Under the pieces are notes generated by a model that was not told the DNA's origin, ran no database searches, and worked only from the letters and a program-made list of their open reading frames with translations. Below, piece by piece: positions 485-43,500 of a stretch of 64,000 bases of DNA. The position numbers and the translations under genes were made by a program. Positions within the stretch are counted from its first letter, which is position 1, and each line of letters starts with the position of its first letter. Origin of the DNA: a virus; IMG/VR virus record IMGVR_UViG_3300025015_000010, positions 64,001 through 128,000 of that record, one strand, 5' to 3'.

Positions 485-689
485 CAGGCTTATGCCTTAT
501 TTACATGTAAAGCCTAAGTTAGCCAAAGTTCCCTAATAAATAGCTAACAAAACCTGTCTACCTATGCTAAACAAAGATTCTATACTGTGGTAAGACAAGT
601 CGTATATTTGGTGTATTTTTCGGTTTCAACGAGGTCTCTTGACCTCGGGTAATAGACCTGATATAATTTATGATAATTGGAGATACTTT

Positions 690-1757
690 ATGGTTGAAGA
701 TACTTTACTGGACAGAATACATCACGGTGACGTGACCGACCTTTTGAGAGATTTGCCAGATTCCTGTGTTGATCTTGTGGTGTCGTCTCCTCCTTATAAT
801 CTTGGAAAAGAATATGAGGCGAGAAAAGCCTTGGGAAATTATCTCAAGGAACAAACAGATATATTGTCCGAGTGTGTTCGCGTGCTCAAACCATCTGGTT
901 CGTTGTTTTGGCAAGTAGGTGCATTTTCCGATGACGGTATTCTTATACCACTAGATATTCGATTTTTTCCAATACTGGAGTCTCTTGGGTTATACCCGAA
1001 AAATCGAATTGTGTGGGCACGACAGCACGGTTTACATGCCCGTAAGAAATTCTCGTGTCGCTACGAAACTATCTTGTGGTTTACCAAATCAGATAATTAT
1101 GTTTTCAACTTAGACGCTATAAGGGTGCCACAAAAATATAAGAACAAGAAGGCCCATAAAGGAGAGAACAGAGGGAAATATACATGTAATCCAGCCGGTA
1201 AGAATCCAGGTGATATCTGGATGTTCCGTAACGTAAAACATAATCACGAAGAACAAACAATTCATCCATGTCAGTTTCCAGAGGACTTAATCTCCAGGAT
1301 AATGCTTTGTACCACTGTGGTAGGTGGGGTTGTTTTTGATCCATACATAGGCACTGGTACAACTGCCGTCGTTGCTAGGGATCACGGTCGCCATTTTATA
1401 GGGGCAGAATTAAATATTGATTACTATAGAGTCGCAATAAGACGGCTAAGTGGACAACCAGATGAAAATGGTTTGTTTCCTAACCTGAAGACTCTTAGGG
1501 CATATGCCGAGAGAACCGGTCAACCAGTAGCTAATTTCAAATTTGATAAACAAGTAGGGAAATTTCCAACAGATCGGGCAAAGTCAAAAATATATACAGA
1601 AGAGTATCACCTAACCGAGTTGTCAAAACGACTTGAGTATGAAGAGGATTCTTTCGGTGCCCGGCTTCGCGGCAAAGACGCGCCAGCAGATTACTTCCCT
1701 GGTGGTTCGGTTAAATCAGTCGAAGACGATGCACCGTTGTTTAAGAGAGTCGTTTAA
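690..1757 (+). CDS. Beta-class N4-cytosine/N6-adenine DNA methyltransferase (M.BglII-like)
   Basis: SPPY motif precedes HPCQFP and DPYIGTGT. GGAGA RBS before the ATG at 690. Confidence 0.9.
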   Translation: MVEDTLLDRIHHGDVTDLLRDLPDSCVDLVVSSPPYNLGKEYEARKALGNYLKEQTDILSECVRVLKPSGSLFWQVGAFSDDGILIPLDIRFFPILESLGLYPKNRIVWARQHGLHARKKFSCRYETILWFTKSDNYVFNLDAIRVPQKYKNKKAHKGENRGKYTCNPAGKNPGDIWMFRNVKHNHEEQTIHPCQFPEDLISRIMLCTTVVGGVVFDPYIGTGTTAVVARDHGRHFIGAELNIDYYRVAIRRLSGQPDENGLFPNLKTLRAYAERTGQPVANFKFDKQVGKFPTDRAKSKIYTEEYHLTELSKRLEYEEDSFGARLRGKDAPADYFPGGSVKSVEDDAPLFKRVV

Positions 1758-2427
1758 ACGTTAGTCTCCATCCGTTAGTTGACTTAGAGCCGCGTTCAAC
1801 TAGGCAAAGTCCATTTATTTGTTCTTTAATTGTTCTGGATGTTCTGTCTGGATAAATCGTCTGTACAGATGGTACCTCGTGGCCGGGGTCAACAGACAGG
1901 TTTGTTACCCGCATCGGAATTCCAAACATATTAAATTTCGACAATCCATTGGCCTGTTCTACAGATTGTTCATAGTAGAGTGTGCTATTGGAAGCGGGAA
2001 GTCTTCCTGTCTTAGTCAAAAGGACAAGGGCCTTGACAGTTTTGTGCCCTAATTTGATACCAGCCCTTTTGAATATGTCACTGCGAATGACATTATTAAG
2101 AAAGAATGGGTAATTAGAAAACTGTGCTTCGAGCATTATCCCATTCTTGGCGAAATCCACATCTGAGCCAAGAAACCGGACTGCGGGAGGCACCGATGGC
2201 CCTGATATCCATCCAGATGACCCCAGAACGCGCTCCAAATAGGCGTTAGTGGCTACTGGATCAAAAATCAGATGTCCTGATTTGTTTTTCTGTAGAGATC
2301 CTTTTAGGTACAATGGCATATCCTCTGCGGCTTTTAGGATATCTGCCCATTCTTTTGCCGCTTCGTCTGATAATAACTGTTTTACCCCATTAAAATCTTG
2401 CCATTGAACTTTAATGTTCACCTCCAA
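1741..2427 (-). CDS. Type II restriction endonuclease, BglII-like
   Basis: LIFDPVATN, FLGSDVDFAK, EAQFSNYPF (E-x-Q) and PASNSTLYYEQ match BglII motifs as I recall them. Convergent with the MTase. Confidence 0.88.
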   Translation of the reverse strand: MEVNIKVQWQDFNGVKQLLSDEAAKEWADILKAAEDMPLYLKGSLQKNKSGHLIFDPVATNAYLERVLGSSGWISGPSVPPAVRFLGSDVDFAKNGIMLEAQFSNYPFFLNNVIRSDIFKRAGIKLGHKTVKALVLLTKTGRLPASNSTLYYEQSVEQANGLSKFNMFGIPMRVTNLSVDPGHEVPSVQTIYPDRTSRTIKEQINGLCLVERGSKSTNGWRLTFKRLS

Positions 2428-2527
2428 TCCCTATTTTTGTGTATCGGAGGCTGGTGCCCAAAGCTGAAGCCTTGGTTATAAAATCGGTCAAAAAAATCGC
2501 CGATTGTAAGTACATCCTGAATTATAC

Positions 2528-2557
2528 GGACGAGCGTTCTCAGATAGTGCTAGACTT
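2528..2557 (+). promoter_or_regulatory. Class-2 promoter (GGAC...AGTGCTAGACTT) upstream of the transposase
   Basis: Same motif and spacing at 38181, 40998 and 56986(-). Core also at 19396 and 31565. Confidence 0.6.
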
Positions 2558-2594
2558 CAAATAGCAGATGTCACATAACTATTTGGAGTTAGAA

Positions 2595-3605
2595 ATGTCT
2601 ACAACACTACCGTTCCCTAGAACAGATTTTGAATTCCATGACATGTTTCCAAATGACAGGGCGTGCATTGAATACCTGGCCGAGCTACGTTGGTCCGACG
2701 GCTTTATATGTCCTCATTGTGAGTCACACGAAGGTTATTGGAACGACAAGCGCCTGTATTTCGAGTGCAAATACTGTCACAAACAGACCTATTTAACAGC
2801 CGGGACTGTGATGCACAGTTCCAAGATACCTCTAACGGAGTGGTTCTTAGCAGCGTGGTTTATGGCTACGCTTAAACCTGGGATCAGCGCTTATCAATAT
2901 TGGGAGCGTTCTCGGATTGTAAGTTACAAGACCGTGTTCAATATGCTGCATAAATTGCGTTTCGGTCTTGTAGATCCGAATCCGTATATTTTGGAAGGCA
3001 TGGTCGAAGTGGACGAGGCACTTCTTTGGGGCGAAAAACAGCCGAAGGGCGTCAATAAAGGGCCGAAGGGTAAGATCATTTTGGCTGGCGCCGTAGAACT
3101 CAGAGAGCGCAAGGAAAAGAAGAAACATTTCCCGAATTATTACGTGTCCAGAGTACGTTTACGTGTCGTGCCCAATCGCTCAGAAGAACATCTAGCGGGT
3201 TTCGTTTATGACGCCGTAGCACCTGGAAGCATTGTTTACACAGATGCTCATGCGAGTTACCAAAACCTGGGCGGATACTATGATCATCACGTAATTAGTG
3301 AAGCCCATGGAATGTCCGCCGATAGCGTACTACCAGCATTTCACCAGGTCATCGGGAACTTTCGGGCGTGGATTATCGGTACTCACCATGGCGTAAGCTC
3401 GAAACACATGCAGACCTATGCCAATGAGTTTGCATTCAGAGTGTCCACGACGTTTGACCAGTTTCTGGCTTTTCAACAGATGCTTGGTTCTTCAGTCGTG
3501 GCGCGAGGCCCGACTTACCCAGAACTTTACAATGTCGGCCAAAAGGGTGGTTATGCCCATCTTGGGGACTGCAACCTGGGCTCTTTACCGCTCATAACGT
3601 TCTAA
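2595..3605 (+). CDS. IS1595-family transposase (ISSod11-like, DDH), intact
   Basis: CxxC...CxxC Zn ribbon, VEVDE, VYTD, FHQVIGNF..W..GTHHGVS.KH..Y.NEF.FR. Start chosen from the RBS and alignment to 41489. Confidence 0.92.
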   Translation: MSTTLPFPRTDFEFHDMFPNDRACIEYLAELRWSDGFICPHCESHEGYWNDKRLYFECKYCHKQTYLTAGTVMHSSKIPLTEWFLAAWFMATLKPGISAYQYWERSRIVSYKTVFNMLHKLRFGLVDPNPYILEGMVEVDEALLWGEKQPKGVNKGPKGKIILAGAVELRERKEKKKHFPNYYVSRVRLRVVPNRSEEHLAGFVYDAVAPGSIVYTDAHASYQNLGGYYDHHVISEAHGMSADSVLPAFHQVIGNFRAWIIGTHHGVSSKHMQTYANEFAFRVSTTFDQFLAFQQMLGSSVVARGPTYPELYNVGQKGGYAHLGDCNLGSLPLITF

Positions 3606-3673
3606 TAAGTTAGGATAGTTAAGTCTAAGTTCTAGTGATATTTATAATCACATGTAAATAAGGCATAAGCCTG

Positions 3674-3840
3674 ACTTCGATTTCTTGAAGTAGCCATTTG
3701 TAGGTAGTACAAGTTTCGGCAAGAATCTTCTTCAACTCAGCGGCTACAAAGCCTTCTAGTACAGTATGACGATACTTGGGACACCAAATGATATGATAAC
3801 CGAGAGAATGAACCGCGTGACTACTCGAAGTCGTTTTCAT
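3674..3840 (-). pseudogene. tnpA: TnpA N-terminal half
   Basis: YHIIWCPKYR motif. Truncated at the transposon TIR. Confidence 0.92.
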
Positions 3841-3857
3841 AACGAGGTATTATAACT

Positions 3858-5015
3858 GTGTTTCGTACAGTGTCAATACCCACTGATCTTGAACCAGAGC
3901 GGTTTCTACCGTTGATGTCTCAGTGCGCAGATATTTTCAACGCACATGTCGATTGGGCCTTGGAACAGCATAGTTGCAATAAGAGCAAGGCTCATGACGC
4001 GCTGTATTTACAATTCAGACAATCCAATCCAGATGTGCCCTCGGCGTTGATTCAGGCAGTGCGTGATACAGCTTTAGAGGCGGTCAAGGCCAATAAGTAC
4101 AAGAACTGTCCACGAAAGAAAGCATACTCAGGACTTCGTTACGACAAGCGCACAATAACTAGGCGCGGCAATCAATTAACACTTTCTACCTTAGGAACCA
4201 GGGCCAAAACTATACTAAATGTTCCAGAATACTACAGAGAAATCTATAACACTTGGGTATTCAAGAGCGCAACAATTACCTACAAGCGTTACGATCAAAG
4301 AATTTGGGTGCAGTTAGTATTTGACCACGCCACACCTGAGCGATGCCCTATGAACCAAATCCAGGGCATCGATAAAGGACTGTACCATCTGGCAACAACT
4401 TCGGATGGGCAGGTGTATTCTAATGCAAAGGTTCGTTCTGTTCAGCGCAGGTATTTGTACAACAGAGGCACGCTCCAGGCAAAAGGCACTCGCGCAGCGA
4501 AACGTCGTTTGAAAAAGATGTCAGGTCGTGAGAAGCGGTTTAGTCGGAACATGAATCATGTTGTCACTAAGTATCTTGCAAATCAAGAGAGTGTAACGAT
4601 CTTCGTATTAGAAGATTTAACAGGTATTCGCAATCAGAATCGCGGTAAGAAAATGAACAAGTGGATGGCATCGTGGCCGTTCTACGAGTTCGACTCGTTT
4701 CTTATTTACAAATGCGAAGCCTTAGGCAAATTAGTCGTTTTTGTGGACCCGCGAAACACCAGTAGAAAGTGTAGCAGGTGTAAGCACGTCTGCAAAAAGA
4801 ATCGTCACAAGTCTCATTTTCACTGTGTAAAGTGTGGCTTTAGAGCGCATGCCGACTTTAATGCCGCAATCAATATCCGTGACGATTACATTCTCTCTAC
4901 TATGCCTTTGGCAACGGTAGAGCAGGCGGCTGTCAATCCGCCATATGTTTCGAGTGTTATGGGTGAAAATCCCGCCTTAGTTACAAGCCACCAGCCTTGT
5001 GCTGGTGGTCATTGA
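3858..5015 (+). CDS. tnpB: TnpB RNA-guided endonuclease
   Basis: RuvC D (GIDKG), E (VLEDL) and D (HADFNAA), plus a Zn ribbon. Confidence 0.93.
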   Translation: MFRTVSIPTDLEPERFLPLMSQCADIFNAHVDWALEQHSCNKSKAHDALYLQFRQSNPDVPSALIQAVRDTALEAVKANKYKNCPRKKAYSGLRYDKRTITRRGNQLTLSTLGTRAKTILNVPEYYREIYNTWVFKSATITYKRYDQRIWVQLVFDHATPERCPMNQIQGIDKGLYHLATTSDGQVYSNAKVRSVQRRYLYNRGTLQAKGTRAAKRRLKKMSGREKRFSRNMNHVVTKYLANQESVTIFVLEDLTGIRNQNRGKKMNKWMASWPFYEFDSFLIYKCEALGKLVVFVDPRNTSRKCSRCKHVCKKNRHKSHFHCVKCGFRAHADFNAAINIRDDYILSTMPLATVEQAAVNPPYVSSVMGENPALVTSHQPCAGGH

Positions 5016-5016
5016 C

Positions 5017-5107
5017 TGATCCGATGGACACCAGAGCGAAGCTTTGGTACTGGGTCAAGATCGAGGATCTTCGTAAGGTGTCGCCTCTCGAACGCTATCT
5101 GAAGTAG
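5017..5107 (+). pseudogene. C-terminal part of the gene at 1..187
   Basis: In-frame continuation DPMDTRAKLWYWVKIEDLRKVSPLERYLK*. Confidence 0.8.
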
Positions 5108-5121
5108 AAAGGAAATAAGTC

Positions 5122-5325
5122 ATGGCATTAAAACTGTATGTATGGCAGAATATGCTGAGCGATTATTACCCTGGGATCGCTTTCGCTATGGCAGAAAACG
5201 CGGCAGATGCCCGCAGGCAGATTATCAGAAGTGGACTCAGTGCCACAGAAGCTAAGCTAGAGTTGGCTGGTAAGCCCAGTGTCTATCGCAGTCCAAAAGG
5301 TTTTCATGAGTATGGAGGCGGCTAA
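5122..5325 (+). CDS. Hypothetical protein
   Basis: AAGGA RBS, coupled to the next ORF. Confidence 0.7.
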   Translation: MALKLYVWQNMLSDYYPGIAFAMAENAADARRQIIRSGLSATEAKLELAGKPSVYRSPKGFHEYGGG

Positions 5326-5848: not shown

Positions 5849-5850
5849 AT

Positions 5851-6531: not shown

Positions 6532-6561
6532 CCAGCCTCATTGGTTTAATAAAATACAGTC

Positions 6562-6637: not shown

Positions 6638-6658
6638 CATTTTTAGAAAGTAGGAAAG

Positions 6659-8515: not shown

Positions 8516-8527
8516 AAAGTTTGTAGT

Positions 8528-31557: not shown

Positions 31558-31564
31558 TTGTGAA

Positions 31565-31584
31565 TAGTGGTAGACTTAAGATAG
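31565..31584 (+). promoter_or_regulatory. Class-2 promoter
   Basis: TAGTGGTAGACTTAAGATAG. Confidence 0.6.
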
Positions 31585-31865: not shown

Positions 31866-32579
31866 ATGATTAACGGCATCAAATTTTTAGCATGGCATAG
31901 TGTTGGTAGTGACGATGTTAAAGCTACAATCAAGCAGATAGTCAAGCGAGGTTTCTTGCTGCCTGCTTCGATGCGCACAGGTAGAACTTGCAAGATTCAG
32001 GTCGAGGACTATCTAGCCGGTGATGCCGCATTTGTGTTTATGCATGTAGGCGCTTTTAGTGAAATACATCAAGAAAACCAGTTTATGACTGGGTATAATC
32101 ATAGGAATTTCTATTTTGACGCAGTTGAACTGATCGAGATGGGCGCAATACTGAGGCACCACGATCTATTATTTGAGTACAAGAAGGTCATGTGTAGTAT
32201 TGTCAATAATTTTCTTGGCAGCAATTTAGATCGCAATCAGACCGCATATTTTCTTGAGTATGCTGCCTATATGAGTGGCGTAGACGTTAATTGTCGCGAT
32301 TCTTGGTCGTTCGATTGTTACCGTGAGTTAGCAGATAATTTCATAGCGGGTTTAAGCCGACTACAAGGTGAGCATAGATTAGGTGAAATGTTCGATAAGG
32401 TGTATAAAAAGTGTTTGAAAATCCGAGCCCAGAACGAGCATGTAGGCGACAAGGCAATAAGCATGCTTGAAAGTATGTATGATCACAGAAATCTTTCGAA
32501 TGTAGAAATCATCTGGGAAGGCCCACTCCCGACGTATCTAGCTTTGCATGACTCACCTGCTTTTAGGACGGCACAGTGA
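31866..32579 (+). CDS. DarT-like ART paralog 6
   Basis: AWH, GFLLP, DYLAGDAAFVFM, FYFDA, EIIWEGPLP. Confidence 0.6.
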   Translation: MINGIKFLAWHSVGSDDVKATIKQIVKRGFLLPASMRTGRTCKIQVEDYLAGDAAFVFMHVGAFSEIHQENQFMTGYNHRNFYFDAVELIEMGAILRHHDLLFEYKKVMCSIVNNFLGSNLDRNQTAYFLEYAAYMSGVDVNCRDSWSFDCYRELADNFIAGLSRLQGEHRLGEMFDKVYKKCLKIRAQNEHVGDKAISMLESMYDHRNLSNVEIIWEGPLPTYLALHDSPAFRTAQ

Positions 32580-32649
32580 TGGCTAACGAGCACATTAATA
32601 AAAATTTGCATATCTATGCTCCTGGATCGCCATATAGAGGAAATGCTAG

Positions 32650-33231
32650 ATGAGGCTGTTAGGCTATCATGGAACACACGCTGTGTTCAGGAATTTTGAG
32701 AAGCGCGGAGGTGTTCGTCAGATACTATTTGCTAGTTTCAAGGTTCCGTCGAATGGTTTTTTCTTTTCTGACAATCTCGATGACGCGGCTGGTTTCGGGC
32801 CTAATGTGATTGTTGCTAATCTAATTTTGCGACGGCCATTAGTATTTCCCGAGCACGATAAGCACGCCGCGTTCTGGAACAATGAATTCTCTTACTTTTT
32901 CGGTCAAGATATGGACGAAGCGGCTACAGTGTGGCAGAGCGATTTGGATTATATTTTTGCCCCGCTCATCCAAGAAGATCATGGCAAGTTCGTCGTTGAT
33001 CTAGGCTCAACTAGGTACTATGTTGATCCTAACGACATAGATTGGTCAGAGTTTGCAGTTCTGAGTGGCGGCGTTGAATGGAATATATTGGATAATCCGG
33101 ATGTTGTGGTCCGCATGCAAGAACGTGGCTATGATGGAACAGTGGTGTATGAGCCAGGAACATATAGTGGCTATTCTTATTTTGTGATTGATCAAAGCCA
33201 GATAGAAATTTTAGAGATAGTCCGAAGATGA
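32650..33231 (+). CDS. ART-PolyVal-like ADP-ribosyltransferase
   Basis: YHGT, GFFFS, A..FG, GYDG, QI. Confidence 0.78.
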   Translation: MRLLGYHGTHAVFRNFEKRGGVRQILFASFKVPSNGFFFSDNLDDAAGFGPNVIVANLILRRPLVFPEHDKHAAFWNNEFSYFFGQDMDEAATVWQSDLDYIFAPLIQEDHGKFVVDLGSTRYYVDPNDIDWSEFAVLSGGVEWNILDNPDVVVRMQERGYDGTVVYEPGTYSGYSYFVIDQSQIEILEIVRR

Positions 33232-33747
33232 TTAAATATCTAGCTGCCATGTTGTTACTATTATCTACAGCACATGCTCAGGAAAATTCAGTGGCCGAAG
33301 CAATGGCAAAATTTTCTGTAGATACCGATTTGACTCAGCCAGTGGATATTACTGCTGAAGATTTTGAGACATATTTTAAGCAGAAAGGTGCAAAGGGCAT
33401 GTTGGGTACGGGGGAAGCCTTCGTGGCCGCTCAAGAGAAATATGGTATCAACGCTGTATACATCATGGCCCATGCAGCCTGGGAATCTGGATGGGGAAAG
33501 TCCTGGATAGCACAAAACAAGAAAAATTTGTTCGGTTACGGCGCTTATGACAGATCACCTGCAAAATCAGCTTGGACTTTTGAGACCTACACCGACGGTG
33601 TAGATATCGTAATGTCACATGTCAAGGAAGACTACTTGACACCTGGTGGTAAGTATTGGAGCGGGGCGCCGTCGCTACGAGGAATGAACAATGCATATGC
33701 CACAGATAAAACCTGGCAGTTTGGTATTACGTCGATTATGAATGGGT
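33228..33747 (+). pseudogene. GH73 glucosaminidase/muramidase with signal peptide, truncated by transposon B
   Basis: HAAWESGWG, NLFG, YATD. Native C-terminus continues at 43501-43646. Confidence 0.88.
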
Positions 33748-33936
33748 TAGGCTTATGCCTTATTTACATGTAAGGTTCCAGTTAGCCTAAACGCCCCGAT
33801 AAATAGCTAACAAAAGCCGTTTAGGGCACTAATGCCAGGATGTCTAGTCTTGGTTCTTATCGACGGCCAAGTCCTGTCCAAGGGGTTTTACGGTGTTTTG
33901 AGTAACATAGACGACCATCTTTATAGGGAGGTCGTC

Positions 33937-34347
33937 ATGGGCAGTATACAGAGGGCTAAACTAGTCGAGGCAGCGTCCCAGAGGTTAGAAAAGGAACGAA
34001 TAGCTTTCTACGATTATCTCGCTGAGTTGACTAATGCTGATTTTGTCGCAGAGAGTGGGATAGCCAGAGGAGAAATGGAGCGACGCAAATTAGTTTTAGA
34101 ATCTCGCCAGGCGGAATATGATAAGGAATTTAAAATGTACATTCAGGATTTACATGAAGAAAACATAAGAGAAAGTCAGAGAATTTCAGCAGAGAGTCAG
34201 AAACTCACGGCATCGAGTCTTCGGTGGAGCAAGATTGCTGCTGCGGCGGTTATTGCTTATGCAGTAGCTACTGGAGTACAAATCTATTTTTCTATTATTT
34301 GGCATGTACCCGCAAATGTGCCTATACTTGTTCGATTGATACGTTAA
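33937..34347 (+). CDS. Coiled-coil protein with C-terminal TM helix (cargo)
   Basis: GGAGG RBS, hydrophobic C-terminus. Confidence 0.7.
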   Translation: MGSIQRAKLVEAASQRLEKERIAFYDYLAELTNADFVAESGIARGEMERRKLVLESRQAEYDKEFKMYIQDLHEENIRESQRISAESQKLTASSLRWSKIAAAAVIAYAVATGVQIYFSIIWHVPANVPILVRLIR

Positions 34348-34390
34348 TAGACACATTCCTCGGAGTAATTTCCGAGGAATGTGTCTATTA
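34345..34390. terminator. Long perfect hairpin between convergent genes
   Basis: TAATAGACACATTCCTCGGA-loop-TCCGAGGAATGTGTCTATTA. Confidence 0.75.
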
Positions 34391-34395
34391 CTTAG

Positions 34396-36375
34396 TTACG
34401 CCCCAAATCCTCGTACTTCCGGCCCATCTTCCCAACGGTCCTTAAGAACCGACTGGACAGCCTCTAACAATACTTCCTGGCTCAGTACAGTCAACCCTCG
34501 ATGCTCAACCAGTCTCACGGCGTAAAGCAGAGATTTTTTGATTTCCCCGCCCGATAACTCAGCCTGGGCCAACTCTTCAAAATTCACGTTACCTAGCTTG
34601 GTACAGTCCGCCAGTAGCCCGCGCCAGATAGCTTCCCTGGCTTCTTCGTCTGGCAAGTCGAATTCCAGGACAGCCGCAACGCGCCGAATAAGTGCCTCGT
34701 CTAGGGCTTCCTTTCGGTTGGTCGCTAGAATTACGCAGCCGTTGAAGCGTTCGATTTCTTGGAGCAGCACGGCCACGTCTTGAGCTTCCCACGTGTGGCT
34801 AGTCCCGCTACGGGCGTAGAACAGACTATCGGCTTCGTCAAAGAACAGCACGGCCTTGCCTTCGTGGTCGTCTTTAGCCGTTTGGAACACTTTGGCGATG
34901 TGCTTCTGAGTCATGCCAACCCAATGGCTGATTAGCTGGCTGGAATCGACGGTCAGCAACGGCCAGCCGAGTTCACCGGCTACGGCTTGCGCGGCGAGTG
35001 TCTTGCCTGTTCCTGGTAGCCCCGAAAACAACAATCCAGGCCCGGTTCCGTAAGCTATCTTCTTGTCCAGCCCCCAATCGGCTAGGTAAGAACGGTCAGA
35101 CTTCAGGGCTGAAATCGTCATTTCGATGGTTTCGCGGTGAGCATCAGGCAAAACCACGTCGGCAAGTTTCACTATGGGTCGAATACACCGTAGCGAGCCG
35201 CCCGCCTCTATCGCTTCGGGCTCCGATTTCCCAGGCTTGGCTATAAAGTCAACGTCTCCATGCCCAAGGAGATAACGCGCCAAGTCTTCGTCTACGTAGA
35301 AATCTGTCGCTTCAACATGTCCTGCCTTGCCAGAAACTCGCACAAGGCCAGATGTGTGCAATCTGGCCTCAGGGTAAAGATAGCGGCGCAAGTCTAAGCG
35401 TACCGCTCTAGTTCCACCCATGACCTCAAGGAGTAGCCTTCCTGGCGTTTTGGGTCGTCCTGCTGGCTCGTCATTTCCACCGAACATAAAGAACGGCCTA
35501 TCATCGCTGGTATCCCGGCCATTCAGAGCAAGAAACACCAGTGCGTCAATTTCAGGACTGGCTAGATGTTCCTGCCTGGCCAGATGGTGTAACGGTGTAT
35601 CGTCCCAACGGGCAGATTCGCGTTCCACGATAAGCGCCCGCTCCAGTTTGCATAGCTTGTCTTGAGCCTCGGCATCTTCGTCGTCGTCATCGAGTGCCCA
35701 AGGTGGCCTACGTAGTCTCCTGGGTCGTTCTGTGCAGCGGCCCGCCCTGGCTTCACAGCATTTCAATATCAAGTCCAAATAATCGGTATAAGTAGCGCAT
35801 GGAGCCACACTCGAAGACGGTTCAGGCACGCCGTAGTCTTGCCCCGTGAGTCTGGTTAGCAGCACTTCACCGACTCGATAGCCTTTGAGTTCGTGCCAGC
35901 GACCGTTTTCAAGTTGTATAACCAACTTGGATTTAATGAGTGGTGCGTTTCTATGCAAGGCACGACTAGCTAGAATCCTGTCCATCGCCTGGGTACTCAA
36001 GGCAGGTAATATTGCTGTAATTTCTCGCTCAGGCCCGCCTTTGCTATCCGCCGCGAGCAACAGCCAAAGTATGCTTTCTTCGATGGCTGTCAGTGATAAC
36101 TCACCGATGATCTTATCCCAAAGCAACACACAGCCTTGTTCCTGGGCTGCACGGCGAAGTTCAGCCATGCTCGCCCGGATAGGTGTAGTCTCTAATAATA
36201 AATCTCTGGGTGGCGCTTCAGGTGGGATTTCTACAGGTGACATAGCCCGGCGTGCGTGTCGCAAGTACCTGGGCAGTTCTTCGGGCGGGGAACCAATGCT
36301 GTCTAGTACATTTCCGAGCCGAAACCCAAGCTCAAGGAAATTGCGGTCCAACTCGGTAAGCGGGTTATCCTGCAT
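34396..36375 (-). CDS. AAA+ ATPase (SpoVK/CDC48-like C-terminal domain), GC-rich cargo
   Basis: GLPGTGKT, LFFDEAD, ILATN, RR. TTGACA-17-TATAAT promoter at ~36473-36501. Confidence 0.9.
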   Translation of the reverse strand: MQDNPLTELDRNFLELGFRLGNVLDSIGSPPEELPRYLRHARRAMSPVEIPPEAPPRDLLLETTPIRASMAELRRAAQEQGCVLLWDKIIGELSLTAIEESILWLLLAADSKGGPEREITAILPALSTQAMDRILASRALHRNAPLIKSKLVIQLENGRWHELKGYRVGEVLLTRLTGQDYGVPEPSSSVAPCATYTDYLDLILKCCEARAGRCTERPRRLRRPPWALDDDDEDAEAQDKLCKLERALIVERESARWDDTPLHHLARQEHLASPEIDALVFLALNGRDTSDDRPFFMFGGNDEPAGRPKTPGRLLLEVMGGTRAVRLDLRRYLYPEARLHTSGLVRVSGKAGHVEATDFYVDEDLARYLLGHGDVDFIAKPGKSEPEAIEAGGSLRCIRPIVKLADVVLPDAHRETIEMTISALKSDRSYLADWGLDKKIAYGTGPGLLFSGLPGTGKTLAAQAVAGELGWPLLTVDSSQLISHWVGMTQKHIAKVFQTAKDDHEGKAVLFFDEADSLFYARSGTSHTWEAQDVAVLLQEIERFNGCVILATNRKEALDEALIRRVAAVLEFDLPDEEAREAIWRGLLADCTKLGNVNFEELAQAELSGGEIKKSLLYAVRLVEHRGLTVLSQEVLLEAVQSVLKDRWEDGPEVRGFGA

Positions 36376-36693
36376 GGGCGTTCTCCTTTTTAGGACAAAG
36401 CTTATTTGTTCTTGGACCGAATTTCTCCATTATTGGTATTTATTTGTCATCCTAAGTTGGATGATGGTCAGGCATTATACACAATAGGTACATAATGTCA
36501 AGGATGAACTGTGCATATTAGTGCTAGAATTAAATTATGTCTAAACCCATGATTCAGTCACCGCCCGAAATCGACAAAGATGAGATGTCTAATCGTATTT
36601 TTAGTTTCCTTTCATCAGAAGGCCTATCGTTAAAAGAGATGTGGGAAGTCGGTGACTGGTTTTCTAAAGAAGCTCATCTTAAATATGTCGAGG

Positions 36694-36993
36694 CTAGACA
36701 AAGACTTTCTCACTAGTATTCGGTTTTAATGCCAGGCGTAGGTTGTCTATAACCCTGGAGTCATTTACTCCAGACATAGCAATAATAAAAGCCACAGCGC
36801 CTAGATAGGCATTGTCACTTAGCTTTAAGTTCAGAGCGTCTTTCCCTCCGACACTGACAGCTAACGTATTGATATACTTACCGAGTGAAGTTAAATCATA
36901 GCCAACCGGAAGCCACTGCACTGGCTGATGCCCCATGACATAGGCAACACGACCAAGAACAGTTGTTGGGTCAATGATGTTTACCGTGTCCAT
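36694..36993 (-). CDS. Hypothetical protein (cargo)
   Basis: AAGGAGG RBS before the ATG at 36993. Confidence 0.55.
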   Translation of the reverse strand: MDTVNIIDPTTVLGRVAYVMGHQPVQWLPVGYDLTSLGKYINTLAVSVGGKDALNLKLSDNAYLGAVAFIIAMSGVNDSRVIDNLRLALKPNTSEKVFV

Positions 36994-37096
36994 GAGTGCC
37001 TCCTTTAGTGGCTTAATTTCAAAACCAACTGTAACAACGCTTGGCACTCGCCCCGGAGTTCGCCTCCATCCTTCCTTTGATTTACTGTGCTCTAGG

Positions 37097-37957
37097 TTAA
37101 GGTTGCCAAGTTTCAATAACTACGATCATAAAACCATCTGGCCCTTGCCAGTCATCGCCGCTTGAACATCCTAGTCCGTGGACGTTTGGGCAGAGCACCA
37201 AAGGTCCACTTTGGTCGGCAATGAATTCGGTGGCGTCGCCCATTCCGCGTGGGTTTACAGGATCAATTCCTACACCAAATAGAAGTTGCATAGGTTTGCC
37301 AACAGGGAACATGCGTGAGTCACCGAAGGACTCTGCCTCAGATGATCCTTCAGGCCCGTGGTATCGCCAGTCAGACGCACATCGCCATTTGCCTTTAGCG
37401 CGTATTCTTATGTGATCCCCCGCTTGGATTGTAACTTTAGAAACATTTTGCCATCTTCCGTCACCGATTAATAATCCTACTCGTTGCTTGTAATTATGCG
37501 TATTGTCTGGAGTCCCGGCAGAGGTTATTTCGGCAAGCCAAGAGGTAATACTCTCTAGTAGCGGTGCCAAAGACGCGATAGTCTTCTCGCCTAGTCCATT
37601 AGGGTGGCCTGGGGGCTCAATTCTGGATTGGATTGTCGCTATTCCAGCCCAAACCAACTCTCGTTGTAGCGCCAAGTATTCGTCGCGTAACTGCGTGGGA
37701 GAAGCAGCTTGTTCTGCTACGGATAGTTTCTTTCTTAACGATTGATTTTCTTGTTGAAGTTGTACAACGGTGTCAGAAGAGGTCACAGGTGTTGCACGGT
37801 TGGTGGCGTTCAACTCTCGTTGTAGTGCATCGATCTTATGCTGAAGTTCAGCAATGGCTGTCACGTCTGGTGTGGCTGATGCTGCGGGCGTGCTGTTACC
37901 GCATCCGGCTAAAGCTAACCACGCCGCGCATAAACCTCCTAGTGCCCACTGTCCCAT
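37097..37957 (-). CDS. Lipoprotein with coiled coil and C-terminal beta-sandwich-like domain (cargo)
   Basis: LAGC lipobox, GGAGG RBS. Confidence 0.75.
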   Translation of the reverse strand: MGQWALGGLCAAWLALAGCGNSTPAASATPDVTAIAELQHKIDALQRELNATNRATPVTSSDTVVQLQQENQSLRKKLSVAEQAASPTQLRDEYLALQRELVWAGIATIQSRIEPPGHPNGLGEKTIASLAPLLESITSWLAEITSAGTPDNTHNYKQRVGLLIGDGRWQNVSKVTIQAGDHIRIRAKGKWRCASDWRYHGPEGSSEAESFGDSRMFPVGKPMQLLFGVGIDPVNPRGMGDATEFIADQSGPLVLCPNVHGLGCSSGDDWQGPDGFMIVVIETWQP

Positions 37958-38033
37958 ATCCTGCCTCCCTCCGAGAGGCGGCGTAATCGTCCTTCCATGA
38001 GAAAGGCGGGTACGCCGCTGATTGGTACTTCCC

Positions 38034-38127
38034 CTCGGTCGCACGAGTATCAATAGGGAAGGAGCACGCTATGTCCCCGTCCTCTGGGCGGGTACGTGCT
38101 GGCGTGCTCCCTACTCGTGCGACCGAG
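38034..38127 (-). ncRNA. Candidate structured leader RNA
   Basis: 16-bp perfect outer stem and 9-bp inner stem, directly after TTGCCT-17-TATCCT. Confidence 0.5.
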
Positions 38128-38248
38128 TGCCAACAGGATATCAGAAACAACTCAAAAAGGCAAGAAGTTACTTGGAGCCAAGGACGGGCGTCCTCAAATA
38201 GTGCTAGACTTCAAATAGCAATTGCCACATAACCAACTGGAGTTAGAG

Positions 38249-38398
38249 ATGTCTAGCACATTACCGTTTCCAAGAACTGATTATGAGTTCTACGAATTGT
38301 TTCCAAATGACCATGCGTGCATTGAATACTTAACCGCGCTACGGTGGCCAGATGGCTTCGTATGCCCGCACTGTGAGTCCCACGAAGGCTATTGGAAT
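38249..38398 (+). pseudogene. Transposon B transposase, N-terminal part
   Basis: Near-identical to the 2595 protein up to EGYWN. Resumes as DKRLYF at 42563. Confidence 0.92.
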
Positions 38399-38700
38399 CA
38401 GGCTTATCCGTTATTTGCCGGTAAGGCTTAGGTTAGCCTAAAAAGGCCAATAAATGCCCTTTGCGGCATTTAATCCCGCACGATATGTCCGGGGCAGACC
38501 CAATAGGGCTAATCCTGAGTTAGCATTTTTACGAGGTTTCATCGTCAGTTTCAAACACAGCTAGTCAGGAGACATTTTATGAAGACGCTGGGAGTTATCG
38601 GTATAAGCGCCTTACTCGCTTATAGCATATTTCAGTTATTGGCCTTCGTCGGCCCAGGGAAAATATCGATGCCAATGTACGAGGGCACTCATAAGACAAA

Positions 38701-39171
38701 TTAGTCACTAGTCTTTTCCCTGCGGAATATGAAGTACAAAGTCAGTGCTGCTAGAGAAGCCGAAGTAGCGAGTTGGATTACTTTCTTTTGTACTTGTGTA
38801 GAATATGCTTTTTTGTAATAGCACATGTTTTTGAAATGTTCGCAGTTGAATCTCTTTGTCCACTGAACATTAATCAGTGCTTCAGCCCGTGCAATAATTT
38901 GGTTAGCATGTTCTGGACTCTTAGGGTATCCCGCCGTAACAGCCCCGGATTTTACGGCTTCAATTCTTCCTCCGTGATCTTCTATGAATGTTTTGAAGAA
39001 TTCAGCCTTTGTAACTTTCGCGACACCTGCATTACTGTTGTTTGGCGAGTTGTGATAATAATGTCCTGCACCGTCGTAAATTCCATAATGGTCTACCTTA
39101 ATTGGTAGTCCTTTATAGACGGCGGGGATGTCGTGCAAGACTATGTACCAACCTTTCAACTTCGCGCTCAT
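38701..39171 (-). CDS. LRAT-like permuted NlpC/P60 protein with C-terminal TM (cargo)
   Basis: HYGIY..G...H and NCEHF motifs. Confidence 0.8.
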   Translation of the reverse strand: MSAKLKGWYIVLHDIPAVYKGLPIKVDHYGIYDGAGHYYHNSPNNSNAGVAKVTKAEFFKTFIEDHGGRIEAVKSGAVTAGYPKSPEHANQIIARAEALINVQWTKRFNCEHFKNMCYYKKAYSTQVQKKVIQLATSASLAALTLYFIFRREKTSD

Positions 39172-39292
39172 AATTTTACTCCTAGATAATTTGAGCCGCG
39201 TTTCGTCCGGCCTGAGTCTATCGGTTGAACCTAGCACCGTCTAGGTTCCTATTGACAAGCTGCCATCCGGCTCTTTATCCTACTTCAAGTTA

Positions 39293-39441
39293 CGTCACCG
39301 GGCTGTAGTACATAGGGAGAAACTCTGTTTTCTCCTCGGGGAGCAAGCCCCGCCCTGTCCATTGGGGACAGGCGCGGCGGCTATGCTTGCTCCCCACCTT
39401 GCCCGGTGACGGACAGTACGCCGTTCGCGTCTGTCCTTTTT
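39293..39441 (+). ncRNA. Candidate structured RNA with intrinsic terminator
   Basis: Two nested 11-bp perfect stems after TTGACA-18-TATCCT, then a hairpin plus T-run. Confidence 0.5.
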
Positions 39442-39466
39442 ATTTGCCTTCGGGCAAGGAGGCGGT

Positions 39467-39851
39467 ATGGGCAAGGCAATGTTCTTGGCCATTGTTTTAA
39501 TTTCGTTTTTAGGTGGTTGCTCGTCCGTAGCAACTATGCGCGAGGCCGATCCCACCGAGGGCGCGTCGAAAACATATTCCGCTGATGTGCAACGGGTGGT
39601 AGACGCAGTCAGGCAAGCTATAACAGATGCAGGCTTCCCGTGTAGACGGCGGTGGCTGGTCAATCGTTGCAAGTAAGGGAATGTCAGCGTTTAGCTACGG
39701 CGAGTTTGTACGTGTCATGGTCGCTCCAGCATCGAACCCTAAGTCGTCTATTGTGCATGTTCTTACACGGCGGCGACTGGCCACAAATGTCACGGCCAAG
39801 GGTGATTACTCAGAAGCTATATTTGCTGGTATAGACCTTAGATTGCAATAA
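39467..39851 (+). pseudogene. Frameshifted lipoprotein (cargo)
   Basis: LGGC lipobox in 39467..39676. Plausible C-terminus in another frame from ~39638. Confidence 0.6.
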
Positions 39852-39896
39852 TTGTTTAGCTTCGCGGATTCATTGACTATTGCTGGAGAATTTTCG

Positions 39897-40874
39897 ATGC
39901 TTAGAAATGTGATATACGGGTTTTCGGTGGCCCTGTTGTTTAGTGCTTGTGGAGGTGGCGGCGGGTCGTCCAGTGCAGCACCAGTGCCAGGACTTCAAAC
40001 ACTAGTAGTTCCGTCTGTAAGTGATGTCAGGTTGGACGATGTAAATAGCCAGGGTATTATGCCGAAGAATTTACTTCTTGCTAGTGGAGTTTGGCTTACT
40101 GATCTAACAGGTGATGCCGTCGGAGGCAGTAGCGAGAGAGATATCAGTAGTATGGGCTTATTGCGAGACAAGAATAGCCTGTATGTGGCTTTAGTATTGA
40201 CCGCAGGAGGTGTTCCTGACGTGTCTGGCACCATACAGTATATTTTTAAGATTCAGGCCAGTGGAGCTACACAGAGGTTCGCGTTTAATGGGGATCTTAC
40301 TGGATATGAACCTCTTGTGAGCAAATTCACTGGGACTAATAACGTTACCACCACAGTAATTACTGATGGTCTTGGCGAGGTTTATGCTAATGCTATCATA
40401 TTTGAGATTCCCCTTGCTAACATTACAAACAGCGGCGGAGGGTTATCAGGAATAACAGCAACTGGTTATGTTCAGGCCGCCAATGTAGTAGCCGATAGCA
40501 CGCCGAGTGTATTGCTCGATTTTGGAGGTTACGTGCCCCTAGGTGACGCTAGTAATGATGGCACCTTTAGTAGCCTTCCCGTGTATGTTGCCCCACTGGT
40601 TACTGTTATTTCACTCAATCAGTCTGTGACAGTTGAGTGGTTTGTTGGAAATCCACCAGTAACTACAATTATTGAAACCGATATTCGGTGGCGTCCGAGT
40701 ACGATTGCTACGACCACTGTTGGAACTCAACATGCTATGTCAAATCCGGGGACGATTACTTCGTTTACCGATTCTTTTCTGCCGACAGCCCGAGGAACTT
40801 GGTTATTTTCTGTCTATGTAACCGACGGAGTGACAGAAGCAACTTCGACGGAGAAAGTTGTGATTGTTCAGTAA
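39897..40874 (+). CDS. Ser/Thr/Gly-rich beta-strand lipoprotein (cargo)
   Basis: FSACGGGGGSS lipobox. Confidence 0.75.
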   Translation: MLRNVIYGFSVALLFSACGGGGGSSSAAPVPGLQTLVVPSVSDVRLDDVNSQGIMPKNLLLASGVWLTDLTGDAVGGSSERDISSMGLLRDKNSLYVALVLTAGGVPDVSGTIQYIFKIQASGATQRFAFNGDLTGYEPLVSKFTGTNNVTTTVITDGLGEVYANAIIFEIPLANITNSGGGLSGITATGYVQAANVVADSTPSVLLDFGGYVPLGDASNDGTFSSLPVYVAPLVTVISLNQSVTVEWFVGNPPVTTIIETDIRWRPSTIATTTVGTQHAMSNPGTITSFTDSFLPTARGTWLFSVYVTDGVTEATSTEKVVIVQ

Positions 40875-40887
40875 GTCCGTAGTACCG

Positions 40888-40941
40888 CAAATAAACAGTC
40901 GTGTTTGCCTTTTCATTGAGACAAACACGACTGTTTTATTT
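40888..40941 (+). terminator. Intrinsic terminator
   Basis: AAACAGTCGTGTTTG...CAAACACGACTGTTT followed by a T-rich tail. Confidence 0.7.
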
Positions 40942-41072
40942 TCGCTCATAATTCAACCTGTATGAGCATATCAAAAGCAAGTTATATGTTTTGTCAAGGA
41001 CAGTATCTAGTAAATAGTGCTAGACTTACAATAGGCACGTTACTTGTAAATTTATAATTAGGAGAAAATGGC

Positions 41073-41459
41073 ATGTCAATCTACATACCCGAGAGCGCGG
41101 ATATATCAGGTTTGGACGCATCATTCTGGAAGAAGAAAAAGAAGCCTGCCCCCGCTGTTAAACTGTCAGATAAATTGATGAAAGTTAAGACTTCAGCAGA
41201 ACAGAGCATGTTTAGTACAAAAGCTATTAGGATGACGACTGAACAAAGGTGCATTGCAATTGGTGGACGCTGGGACTCATCTACCAATAAGTGCTTCAAA
41301 CGAGTATGTAACAGCGCTGATATAACTTTGCCACAGCCAGTAGACCCTTATGCTCAGGCAAAGGCTGATTGTGCTGCTAAGGGCGGGCAGTGGTATCCAT
41401 TTGCTAACCCACAGAAGTGCTTCAAACGAGTATGTAACGAGGCTGATGCTGGATTTTAG
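41073..41459 (+). CDS. Small protein with two Cys-rich repeats (cargo)
   Basis: C...GG.W...KCFKRVCN twice. Identical 24-bp DNA repeat at 41289 and 41415. Confidence 0.75.
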   Translation: MSIYIPESADISGLDASFWKKKKKPAPAVKLSDKLMKVKTSAEQSMFSTKAIRMTTEQRCIAIGGRWDSSTNKCFKRVCNSADITLPQPVDPYAQAKADCAAKGGQWYPFANPQKCFKRVCNEADAGF

Positions 41460-41488
41460 GCCAATTAACCTAGTTGATCGGATGAGTA

Positions 41489-42481
41489 ATGTCTAGTAAG
41501 TTACCATTTCCAAGGACAGACCGTGAATTCCTGTTGATGTTTCCAAACGAGGAAGCCTGTCTTGAGTATTTGATTGCGCTGCGTTGGCCCGATGGTTTTA
41601 CGTGCCCGCATGATGGATCACAAGAAGCCTATTGGCGACCAGGTAGAAAAGCGTTTGAATGCAAATACTGTAAGTATCAAGCCTATGCCACGGCCGGAAC
41701 GGTCATGCACAGTTCTAAGATACCTCTGACCGAATGGTTTTGGGCCGCTTGGCTTATGGCCACGCTCAAGCCAGGAATCAGTGCCTATCAGCTTTGGGAG
41801 CGGTCAATTATCAAGAAGTACGAAACAGTATTCAGCATGCTTCATAAACTACGCTTTGGTCTAGTAGATCCGAATCAACGGTTGTTCGATGGCATGGTCG
41901 AAGTCGATGAAACCTTCGTATGGGGCGAGAAACAGCCCAAAGGAACTAGAGGCCCCAAAGGTAAGATCATTATGGCTGGTGCTGTAGAACTCAGACACCG
42001 ATCAGAGAAAAAGAAGAATTTTCCAGATTACTATGCTACAGGCGTAAGGTTTCGAGTTGTACCCGATAGATCGGAAGAATCGTTAGCAGGCTTCGTCTAC
42101 GATTCTGTGGCAGAGGGAAGCATGGTCTACACGGATGCTCATGCGAGCTACCAACATTTAGACGTTCTATATGAACACTATATTGTTAGTGAATCCCGTG
42201 GGATGGACGCCGATAGCGTACTTCCGCACTTCCACCACATTGTTGGTAATTTCAAGGCGTGGATCATTGGTACGCATCACGGTGTCAGCCCGAAGCATCT
42301 TCAAACCTATGCCAATGAGTATGCATTTCGAGTTTCGCATACCTACGACCAGTTTCTAGCGTTTCAGCTAATGTTGGGCTTTTCGCTCGTTTCTCGCGGT
42401 CCAACTTACCCAGAGCTTTATAACGTGGGCCAACACGGCGGATATGCCCACCTCTCAGGCGTGGGTCTAGGCTACTTATAG
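41489..42481 (+). CDS. IS1595-family transposase (ISSod11-like), intact
   Basis: VEVDE, VYTD, FHHIVGNFK.W..GTHHGVS. Confidence 0.92.
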   Translation: MSSKLPFPRTDREFLLMFPNEEACLEYLIALRWPDGFTCPHDGSQEAYWRPGRKAFECKYCKYQAYATAGTVMHSSKIPLTEWFWAAWLMATLKPGISAYQLWERSIIKKYETVFSMLHKLRFGLVDPNQRLFDGMVEVDETFVWGEKQPKGTRGPKGKIIMAGAVELRHRSEKKKNFPDYYATGVRFRVVPDRSEESLAGFVYDSVAEGSMVYTDAHASYQHLDVLYEHYIVSESRGMDADSVLPHFHHIVGNFKAWIIGTHHGVSPKHLQTYANEYAFRVSHTYDQFLAFQLMLGFSLVSRGPTYPELYNVGQHGGYAHLSGVGLGYL

Positions 42482-42562
42482 CAGAATAGTTAGGGCTAGT
42501 TAAGTCTATGATAGGGCTAATGTTAAATTTACCGGCAAATAACGGATAAGCCTGATTGGAAT

Positions 42563-43423
42563 GACAAGCGCCTATATTTCGAGTGCAAATACTGTCACAA
42601 GCAGACTTACTTGACGGCTGGAACCGTGATGCACAGTTCCAAAATACCTTTAACGGAGTGGTTTTTGGCAGCATGGTTTATGGCTACGCTCAAGCCTGGA
42701 ATTAGCGCGTATCAGTATTGGGAGCGTTCGCGCATTGTAAGTTACAAAACCGTATTCAATATGTTGCACAAGTTGCGTTTCGGTCTTGTGGACCCAAATC
42801 CGTATACTCTGGAAGGTATGGTCGAAGTTGATGAAGCCCTTCTTTGGGGCGAGAAACAGCCCAAGGGCATCAATAAAGGTCCGAAAGGTAAAATTGTATT
42901 GGCCGGTGCTATCGAACTCAGAGAACGCAAGGAAAAGAAGAAGCACTTCCCGGATTATTATGTGACTCGGGTACGTCTACGAATCGTGCCTAATCGTTCG
43001 GAAGAGCACTTAGCTGGCTTCGTTTACGATACCGTAGCACCTGGGAGTATTGTTTACACAGATGCCCACGCGAGTTATCAAAACCTGGGTGGTTACTACG
43101 ATCACCACGTTATCAGTGAAGCTCACGGAATGGCCGCCGATAGTGTGCTTCCAGCATTTCACCAGGTCATTGGGAACTTTCGGGCGTGGATTATTGGCAC
43201 CCATCACGGTGTAAGCTCGAAGCACATGCAGACCTATGCCAATGAGTTTGCTTTTAGGGTGTCTACTACGTTCGATCCGTTCTTGGCATTCCAGCAAATG
43301 CTAGGTTATTCAGTCGTAGCGCGAGGCCCGACCTATCATGAACTCTATAACGTAGGCGAAAAGGGCGGTTATGCCCATCTTGGGGACTGTAACTTAGGTT
43401 CCTTACCGCTCGTGATGTTCTAA
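42563..43423 (+). pseudogene. Transposon B transposase, C-terminal part
   Basis: Highly similar to 2595..3605. Confidence 0.92.
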
Positions 43424-43500
43424 AAAGTTAGGATAGTTAAGTCTAAGTTCTAGTGATATTTATAATCACATGTAAATAAGGCATAAGCCTGTGAATGGGT

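Follow-up and report, generated by a model that had tools for sequence, protein, structure and literature searches.

Transporter insertion sequences of the IS1595 family with mosaic passenger genes on phage-like genomes from groundwater

The 64,000-nucleotide stretch analysed here (the window) comprises bases 64001-128000 of the linear 168,734-bp IMG/VR virus record IMGVR_UViG_3300025015_000010, which derives from aquifer (groundwater) metagenomes and has a CheckV completeness of 77 %. It contains three members, designated A, B and C, of a real and partly active family of IS1595 transporter insertion sequences (tIS) that reside on phage-like genomes and carry mosaic sets of passenger genes. 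It is probable that the three belong to a single tIS lineage on the phage-like genomes of one aquifer, and that their cargo has been diversified by ordinary processes. The tIS are already a recognised class within the IS1595 family (TnCentral preprint, doi 10.1101/2021.05.26.445724); the additions made here are a filled/empty polymorphism of A, a double nesting (of C in B, and of A in an IS605-type element), a miniature element, and a three-ended arrangement, seen by comparing C with its relative L007, that offers a clue to how passenger genes are gained. Coordinates without a prefix are window positions, Lnnn denotes individual contigs or loci that were compared, and G000 is the whole genome (Table 1).

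Anatomy and family of the three elements

The end motif CAGGCTTATSC occurs seven times in the window, where 2.0 occurrences would be expected by chance, and six of these are the ends of A, B and C; the CAGGCTTATG/C end is found in all members. The inverted repeats of A are perfect arms of 24-25 nt (485-508 and 3650-3673), those of B are the same arms (33749-33771 and 43468-43490) with T rather than C as the first base, and those of C are again perfect (38399-38424 and 42529-42554). Target duplications of 9 bp enclose A (ACTTCGATT at 476-484 and 3674-3682) and B (TGAATGGGT at 33739-33747 and 43492-43500), and one of 8 bp encloses C (ATTGGAAT at 38391-38398 and 42555-42562), so that the passenger genes lie within the terminal inverted repeats and the duplications flank whole units. 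Behind the left repeat is a block running from GTTAGCC to ATAAATAGCTAAC, a 75-nt repeat family in which A is 81 % identical to B and 60 % identical to C. When 18 ends from nine elements are aligned, they have the tip CAGGCTTAT in common, followed at the left ends by GTTAGCC and ATAAATAGC(T/C)AAC, and at the right ends by TAGACTTAACTA.CCTAAC. The first-pass annotation had placed three elements with a common layout at these positions, and the inverted repeats, flanking duplications and protein domains bear it out; its claim that A and B have the same terminal repeats and about 60 identical bases at the right end also holds, the terminal 67 nt being identical. This identity, next to transposase coding DNA that is only about 85 % identical, suggests either recent exchange or strong constraint.

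Elements and backbone have in common the motif GTG(C/G)TAGACTT (GTGSTAGACTT), which has five exact copies in the window against 0.04 expected and often has AAGGAC about 10 nt upstream. It had been described as a conserved promoter of the elements, and it does stand ahead of their transposase genes; it is not element-specific, because the same motif precedes backbone genes, in this genome as well as in those backbones in which L007, L128 and L107 reside. We consider it a putative promoter class of this phage group, shared by elements and backbones and absent from 80 distant IMG/VR loci. The right subterminal regions (3594-3649 and 43412-43467) present a related feature: all right ends read CTTAGACTTAACTA.CCTAAC inward on the minus strand, a sequence that contains the TAGACTT core of the promoter motif and could be an antisense promoter or a transposase-binding site.

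The elements belong to the IS1595 family. In A and C the transposase has the domain pair of the family (Pfam PF12760 and PF12762) and scores 158-160 bits with NCBIfam NF033547, for which the cut-off is 75, and these Zn-ribbon and DDE domains are combined with repeats of 24-26 nt and target duplications. Duplications of 8 bp surround C, the miniature element, L130 and D', and those of 9 bp surround A, B, L007 and L128. When C and one copy of its repeat are removed from B, 38222-38398 joins 42563-43423 in a 345-aa open reading frame (ORF) whose product is 91.9 % identical to the transposase of A; the description of the two proteins as near-identical was thus generous for 92 % protein identity and about 85 % DNA identity. 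The C transposase is 73 % identical to that of A and 89 % identical to that of L007. The first reading of a DDH-type enzyme is upheld by an alignment with 12 relatives, in which D149, D226, H274, E287 and R291 are invariant and K279 is conservatively replaced; the position seven residues after the E is T or H in the A/B/C clade and R in relatives of 40 % identity, as judged from alignment blocks.

Placement within the family is less direct. The ISSod11 subgroup of ISfinder is characterised by ends of the form nnnGCnTATC and a catalytic D-D-H with K, followed by E-R4-R7, and its elements are generally about 1.0-1.1 kb long, with no passenger genes. The end motif and the D-D-H triad appear to fit this subgroup, and to that extent the original label of 'ISSod11-type' stands; element length in this clade is 1.5-7.3 kb, against 1.0-1.1 kb for the subgroup. 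In a quick IQ-TREE tree of these transposases with their IMG/VR relatives and ISAcr1, a distinct long-branch clade with good support unites the transposases of A, B, L006, C and L007, and L130 is its sister. The closest named IS found was ISAcr1 of Acidiphilium plasmids, with 41.8 % transposase identity, the same domain pair, and ends ..TGCCTATCCGGTT / ..TGCCTATCCGG with the same GCnTATC core. It differs in being a bare 1082-bp IS on bacterial plasmids, without passenger genes, and the tree places it with an IMG/VR CATGCTTATCCGG clade and not with the A/B/C clade.

Table 1. Positions of the elements, their genes and motifs, and related elements elsewhere
Feature	Position	Strand	Details
IS605-type element hosting A	186-5017		tnpA (Y1 transposase) split, 3674-3840(-) and 241-484(-); tnpB 3858-5015(+)
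Element A	485-3673	+	3189 bp; IS1595-family tIS with restriction-modification (R-M) pair
A, type II DNA methyltransferase	690-1757	+	ORF open from 639, ATG 690 likely start; Pfam N6_N4_Mtase 4e-57; PADLOC MTase_II 3.5e-121
A, BglII-like type II restriction endonuclease	1741-2427	-	PDB 1d2i (BglII) 5.9e-44, residues 6-203; PADLOC REase_II 8.9e-44
Promoter-like motif, AGTGCTAGACTT type	2542-2564	+	Ahead of A transposase gene
A, transposase	2568-3605	+	345 aa, intact; Zn_ribbon_IS1595 and DDE_Tnp_IS1595; NCBIfam transpos_IS1595 3e-46
Promoter-like motif, backbone copies	31562-31584; 56978-57000(-)
Element B	33748-43491	+	5580 bp of own DNA plus nested C and its 8-bp repeat
B, 171-aa gene	33832-34347	+	Slot next to left end; no Pfam, PADLOC or NCBIfam match; other genes instead in L006 and L128
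B, AAA+ ATPase with WHD (PF22977)	34396-36375	-	659 aa; 54 % GC; Pfam AAA 7.5e-29, WHD 2.4e-11
B, 59-aa ORF	36537-36716	+	Also kept in L006
B, small protein	36694-37116	-	99-140 aa; kept with ATPase in L006
B, predicted lipoprotein	37097-38053	-	318 aa; lipobox LAGC; 51 % GC; no Pfam, PADLOC or NCBIfam match
Promoter-like motif, further element copies	38196-38218; 41012-41034; variant at 36519		Ahead of B transposase gene (first) and C Cys-repeat gene (second)
B, transposase gene, 5' part	38222-38398	+	Continues at 42563-43423
Element C	38399-42554	+	4156 bp; inserted in B transposase gene
C, LRAT/PLAAT-like protein	38701-39237	-	NCEHF at residue 131; C-terminal hydrophobic helix; Pfam LRAT 8e-4
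C, left arm/core junction	39393-39402	+	CCCACCTTGC where L007 core has CAGGCTTAT (window-L007 alignment)
C, predicted lipoprotein	39852-40874	+	340 aa; lipobox LFSAC; 53 % identity to L007 counterpart
C, Cys-repeat protein	41073-41459	+	128 aa; KCFKRVCN repeated twice; 32 % identity to L007 counterpart
C, transposase	41489-42481	+	330 aa, intact; Pfam Zn_ribbon_IS1595 and DDE_Tnp_IS1595
B, transposase gene, 3' part	42563-43423	+	Joins 38222-38398
Element L006			7293 bp; contig runs exactly repeat to repeat
Element L007			3959 bp; duplication AAACCAATA; in another phage-like backbone
Element L128			6897 bp; duplication TCTATTGGA; backbone related and phage-like; L129 holds the same element, the contig again running exactly repeat to repeat
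Element L130			1489 bp; duplication ATTCATTA; sister lineage, 47 % identity
Miniature element	L104:7174-7305 (genome 155174-155305, outside window)		132 bp; 19-nt inverted repeats CAGGCTTATCGGGTTAACG; GTTAGCC block; 8-bp duplication TACAGCAT
Element D'	L100:1272-2827 (genome 1272-2827)		1556 bp; ends CATGCCTACCGGGTTGACG; duplication CTAAATCA; about 0.5 kb passenger DNA

Insertion polymorphism and turnover of passenger genes

Element A lies within the tnpA gene of an IS605-type element in which tnpA and tnpB are divergent (Pfam Y1_Tnp and Cas12f1-like_TNB on the called genes), and removal of A with one direct repeat restores an intact 134-aa Y1 transposase (TnpA). The exact empty junction predicted in this way, GGGCATAACTTCGATTTCTTGAAGTAGCC with a single ACTTCGATT, is present in three contigs from the same aquifer site (L110, L111 and L113), where the methyltransferase, endonuclease and transposase genes of A are missing together. 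Downstream DNA is common to L111, which is empty, and to L107 and L109, which are filled, at 99.5 % identity. An empty-site allele had been proposed as a check on the elements, and for A it is positive: A is a genuine insertion polymorphism, and A at least has moved recently, because filled and empty alleles coexist. The composite of the IS605-type element and A is also found as a contig of its own (L108, equivalent to window 186-5017) and in at least two downstream contexts.

In the aquifer contigs L107-L116, A-free and A-bearing IS605-type forms each occur in more than one flanking context; the IS605-type element, and perhaps also the A-bearing composite, mobilised in trans, therefore seems to move. 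Two contigs (L112:84-727 and L115:1-254) have a transposase 3' end 100 % identical to that of B that continues, by way of the shared 67-bp right end, into the IS605-element flank of A's target site. Recombination between A and B may have produced them, or they may be chimeras that assembly created at the shared 67 bp.

Members of the close clade are rare, and come from groundwater samples wherever a source is recorded. The A transposase alone had no match when used as an IMG/VR query, and the exact 24-nt end pattern had none in IMG/VR and one in JGI metagenome contigs. This is L105:1373-1452, a left end with the 24-nt repeat of A on a 1.5-kb contig, beside a high-GC IS4-like DDE transposase gene that is either another passenger gene or another nested IS. 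Two independent assemblies yield exact repeat-to-repeat contigs (L006 and L129), as expected when an element is present in several contexts. The 132-bp miniature element has the ends of the family and is a non-autonomous member of it.

Comparison of these relatives supports the earlier claim that cargo changes between close relatives. The transposases of L006 and L128 are 99.1 % identical, and the two elements share with B an ATPase block at 81-83 % DNA identity; their left-end slots are unrelated, that of B holding the 171-aa gene, that of L006 the candidate defence gene PDC-S42 (PADLOC 8e-73) and small ORFs, and that of L128 genes of 240 and 322 aa. The gene adjoining the transposase gene also differs between B and L006/L128, the breakpoints among the three elements fall at several different places within the passenger region, and A and B have only the ends and the transposase gene in common. 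Passenger genes thus turn over faster than the transposase diverges, because L006 and L128 carry different left-end genes behind transposases that have scarcely changed.

A different kind of rearrangement separates C from L007, which share genes for a lipoprotein (53 % identity), a Cys-repeat protein (32 %) and the transposase (89 %). L007 has a full right-type end internally, directly after its transposase gene, and the DNA from this internal end to the outer end is an inverted copy of the left arm of C; the sequence at 39393-39402 in C may be the decayed tip of the corresponding inner repeat. The simplest reading would be a three-ended ancestor, consisting of a core (lipoprotein, Cys-repeat and transposase genes) and an arm that brought a second left-type end, with the core having flipped between its own repeats in one lineage. 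Gain of DNA in this manner would resemble, as a functional analogy only, ISEcp1-type read-through, in which passenger DNA is captured through an alternative distal end: DNA between the usual and the distal end joins the mobile unit, as the internal and outer ends of L007 and the decayed inner end of C suggest. The distal end here differs in being a genuine family end with left-type subterminal motifs and not a surrogate, and the event is deduced from two arrangements.

Cargo is also usual in a wider branch of relatives. We compared 80 IMG/VR loci (L020-L099) of 36-43 % transposase identity, of which 23 have clear CATGC(T/C)TATCCGGTTGAC-type ends and a duplication of 7-9 bp. All but two of these 23 are 1.57-2.30 kb long, with small, variable genes taking up 0.4-1.2 kb upstream of the transposase gene, and in the tree the bare 1.15-kb forms and ISAcr1 are nested among cargo-bearing elements. 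Between the left tip and the start of the first passenger gene lie 61-88 nt (mostly 61-67 nt), and passenger genes differ between near-identical transposases, for example between L023 and L030 and between L064 and L065. These elements resemble A, B and C in layout (left end, small variable genes, transposase gene, right end), in their 8-bp duplications and in this exchange of passenger genes. They differ in being only 36-43 % identical, in having high-GC hosts, and in carrying small co-oriented genes (DUF551, deoxyribosyltransferase-like, PAPS-reductase-like) rather than multi-gene sets of 2-6 kb. One of this IMG/VR CATGCTTATCCGG clade, D', is a fifth IS1595 element in the same genome as A, B and C, with a transposase 37-39 % identical to that of A. 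Among the validated elements on virus-classified contigs, passenger genes are therefore the rule in this branch and not the exception, contrary to the annotation's statement that ISSod11 elements are usually cargo-free; the reference classification does not seem to reflect how common they are in this ISSod11-like branch.

Known passenger-carrying forms of the IS1595 family include those of the ISPna2+, ISNwi1+ and ISNha5 subgroups of ISfinder. A, B and C are like them in having one Zn-ribbon/DDE transposase gene at one end, passenger genes within the inverted repeats, a duplication around the whole unit and sizes in the range of 1.5-8 kb. They differ in their end motif CAGGCTTAT(G/C)C and D-D-H triad, which point to the ISSod11 branch, in their residence on phage-like contigs with a promoter-like motif common to the backbone, and in the nesting of the family (in each other and in the IS605 element) and its 132-bp miniature derivative. 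Insertion sequences are generally held to be rare in phage genomes, and our search of the literature on phage-borne IS1595 tIS, like that on ISAcr1, found nothing. Little is understood of the ways in which large phages acquire and exchange accessory genes, and a transposon lineage of phage-like genomes that transports entire gene sets, some of them of defence type, is a concrete and testable vehicle for the flow of such genes between phages; its native transposase-and-ends pair may also serve as a tool for gene insertion into phages of this kind.

Mechanism of exchange and origin of the elements

In the model that we favour, a single Zn-ribbon/DDE-type transposase with a D-D-H triad would act on the 24-26-nt repeats and generate target duplications of 8-9 bp. 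The passenger DNA would be everything between the left end of roughly 75 nt and the transposase-gene promoter, and the genes of the elements would lie behind a promoter-like motif that the phage-like backbones also use. B is probably dependent on other elements, because C splits its transposase gene and it carries a mutated first base; the transposase of A, a 92 % identical protein with the same repeats, could in principle move it. Cargo could be exchanged by homologous recombination between co-resident or co-infecting elements, in the left end and in the transposase/right-end module, by replacement of the left-end slot, by nesting, or by use of a second family end, further out, so that an extra arm is captured. 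The first-pass annotation had proposed a 'gene-shuttling system'; no dedicated swapping mechanism was found, and the pattern fits ordinary recombination at conserved ends, nesting and alternative ends.

Several points weigh against this model. The right-end identity of A and B could reflect constraint on a binding site instead of exchange, the only possible direct recombinants (L112 and L115) could be assembly chimeras, the L007/C rearrangement could have arisen in more than one way, and the subgroup assignment is tentative. The data show neither transposition chemistry nor an excision product or a circle. Of 24 contigs with the right-flank gene, none has an empty B or C allele; the sequence predicted for an empty B site is ...GATTATGAATGGGTATCGTGATT..., and contigs of four runs over 32500-44500 likewise contain no empty B or C joint, rare variants being invisible in contigs. 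Loose contig ends at 43491 prove to be the flank of A, reached via the shared right end. Virion genes, finally, were not detected on the record with the Phage_capsid and TerL_ATPase Pfam models or among 30 PHROG-scanned ORFs.

A broader proposal, which we put forward only tentatively, is that this tIS lineage is specialised for large phages, uses the promoter class of those phages and spreads between co-infecting phages of one aquifer, acting as a vehicle for competition and defence genes (the BglII-like R-M pair, PDC-S42 and the AAA+ ATPase module). Cargo would be gained through conserved-end recombination and extra family ends, with three-ended intermediates and miniature elements, and the elements could ride other mobile elements, as A may do in the IS605-type element.

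The first-pass annotation took the elements to move host-like genes into a phage, and another explanation is that ordinary transposons of the bacterial host entered the phage in the course of infection, the phage being an incidental target and the cargo and its turnover belonging to the host population. Distant relatives of 36-47 % identity are indeed abundant in bacterial chromosomes and plasmids (ISAcr1, Magnetospirillum and Planctomycetota, for example), the ATPase and lipoprotein genes of B have 51-54 % GC against 44 % for the backbone, and BglII-family R-M systems are typical bacterial genes. We nevertheless think this explanation unlikely. No true match to the 24-nt end pattern was found in 185,579 species genomes (one per species), a collection from which the host of the phage may be missing. 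The claim of host-to-phage movement finds no support, because neither an element copy in these genomes nor a passenger-gene donor was found, no relative of the A endonuclease exceeding 47 % identity. Every close member with a known context (in the window, L007 and L128) is on a phage-like backbone, placed members as a whole being on a phage-like contig or a short contig, and the promoter-like motif is common to elements and backbones and absent from the 80 distant IMG/VR loci. The single match to the end pattern among the species genomes lies inside a Bacteroides ORF with no element around it and was rejected as chance.

It is improbable, in our judgement, that the record represents some other extrachromosomal element or a chromosomal island, in which case the transposons would still be real. 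The lack of a Phage_capsid or TerL_ATPase match, the absence of a structural PHROG among the scanned ORFs and the modest size of the largest ORF (671 aa in 169 kb) speak for it. The description of the elements as phage-resident accordingly depends on the IMG/VR class and the replication and RNA-repair genes, and the label 'phage' is used here because of these and of a marked avoidance of restriction sites. The record has phage-type genes for a DNA polymerase, ribonucleotide reductase, helicases, RNA ligases, a CCA-adding enzyme and HNH proteins, in a dense array of small, co-oriented ORFs. Across the whole genome (G000) GGATCC and CGATCG are absent (about 30 and 28 expected) and AGATCT occurs 15 times against 41-49 expected, while GATC itself is common (735). 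The virion module may sit in the missing quarter of the genome, or may have diverged beyond detection.

We give little credence to a dedicated, integron-like cassette exchange at the left subterminal block or at the boundary of the transposase-gene promoter. The edges of homology among A, B and L006 are sharp, beginning some 40 bp upstream of the transposase gene (2528, 38182 and L006 6149) and stopping about 75 nt from the left tip, and the left block holds the palindrome GTTAGC...GCTAAC; both points speak for such a system. Against it, A and C encode no recombinase besides the transposase, the breakpoints among B, L006 and L128 are scattered and not at one site, and the modules are not bounded by a repeated attC-like site; nor do A, B or L006 show a relic inverted repeat upstream of the promoter of the transposase gene. 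That the elements or their nesting are assembly artefacts can be set aside, for while repeats do cause breaks and can cause false joins in metagenome assemblies (as may have happened in L112, L115 and L018), B with its nested C is 100 % identical in at least ten contigs from several samples and assemblers, A is present in at least seven contigs, the two copies of each target duplication match exactly, and the empty site has precisely the predicted sequence.

Passenger genes and genome background

The passenger genes are as first annotated: an R-M pair in A, an AAA+ ATPase and a lipoprotein in B, and an LRAT-like enzyme, a lipoprotein and a Cys-repeat protein in C; none has a paralogue in the backbone. 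In A, the methyltransferase and endonuclease genes are convergent and overlapping, and the methyltransferase gene, called as 355 aa in L108, is preceded by a near-consensus promoter, TTGACC-17-TATAAT, at 639-667. An endonuclease homologous to R.BglII adjoining an N6/N4 methyltransferase identifies the pair as a predicted BglII-type R-M system.

The ATPase of B belongs to the classic clade of AAA+ proteins; its copies in L006 and L128 are 86-89 % identical, and its N-terminal region is matched only by these two element copies. Its resemblance to the defence ATPase IetA does not go beyond the generic AAA+ domain, and a reading as IetAS was rejected (IteA model 107.8 bits against a cut-off of 510, with no protease domain in the neighbouring genes). 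The small protein and the 59-aa ORF of B are 84 % and 80 % identical to their counterparts in L006, and the lipoprotein of B is unlike the genes in the same position in L006 and L128 (340 and 337 aa). The LRAT-like protein of C has the NCEHF motif, and its score of 20.1 bits with the Pfam LRAT model falls short of the cut-off, 24.3.

The target of B is a glucosaminidase (PF01832) gene, present as 33228-33773 and 43491-43646. On removal of B the ORF runs about 52 codons further, so that the product, probably an enzyme of lysis or of the cell wall, is truncated by the insertion. One scaffold (L018:550-610, compared with window 42497-42592) lacks 96 bp that comprise the right repeat of C, the 8-bp repeat and 30 bp of the B transposase gene; it may be a deletion variant in which C is immobilised.

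Neither the backbone nor element A has a DNA match in a phage GenBank collection. Further TnpB-type genes (phrog_506) are located at 19428-20991(-) and 24501-25673(+), and a relative of the Y1 tnpA gene (36 % identity) lies beside one of the two, the genome being rich in IS200/IS605-type elements.

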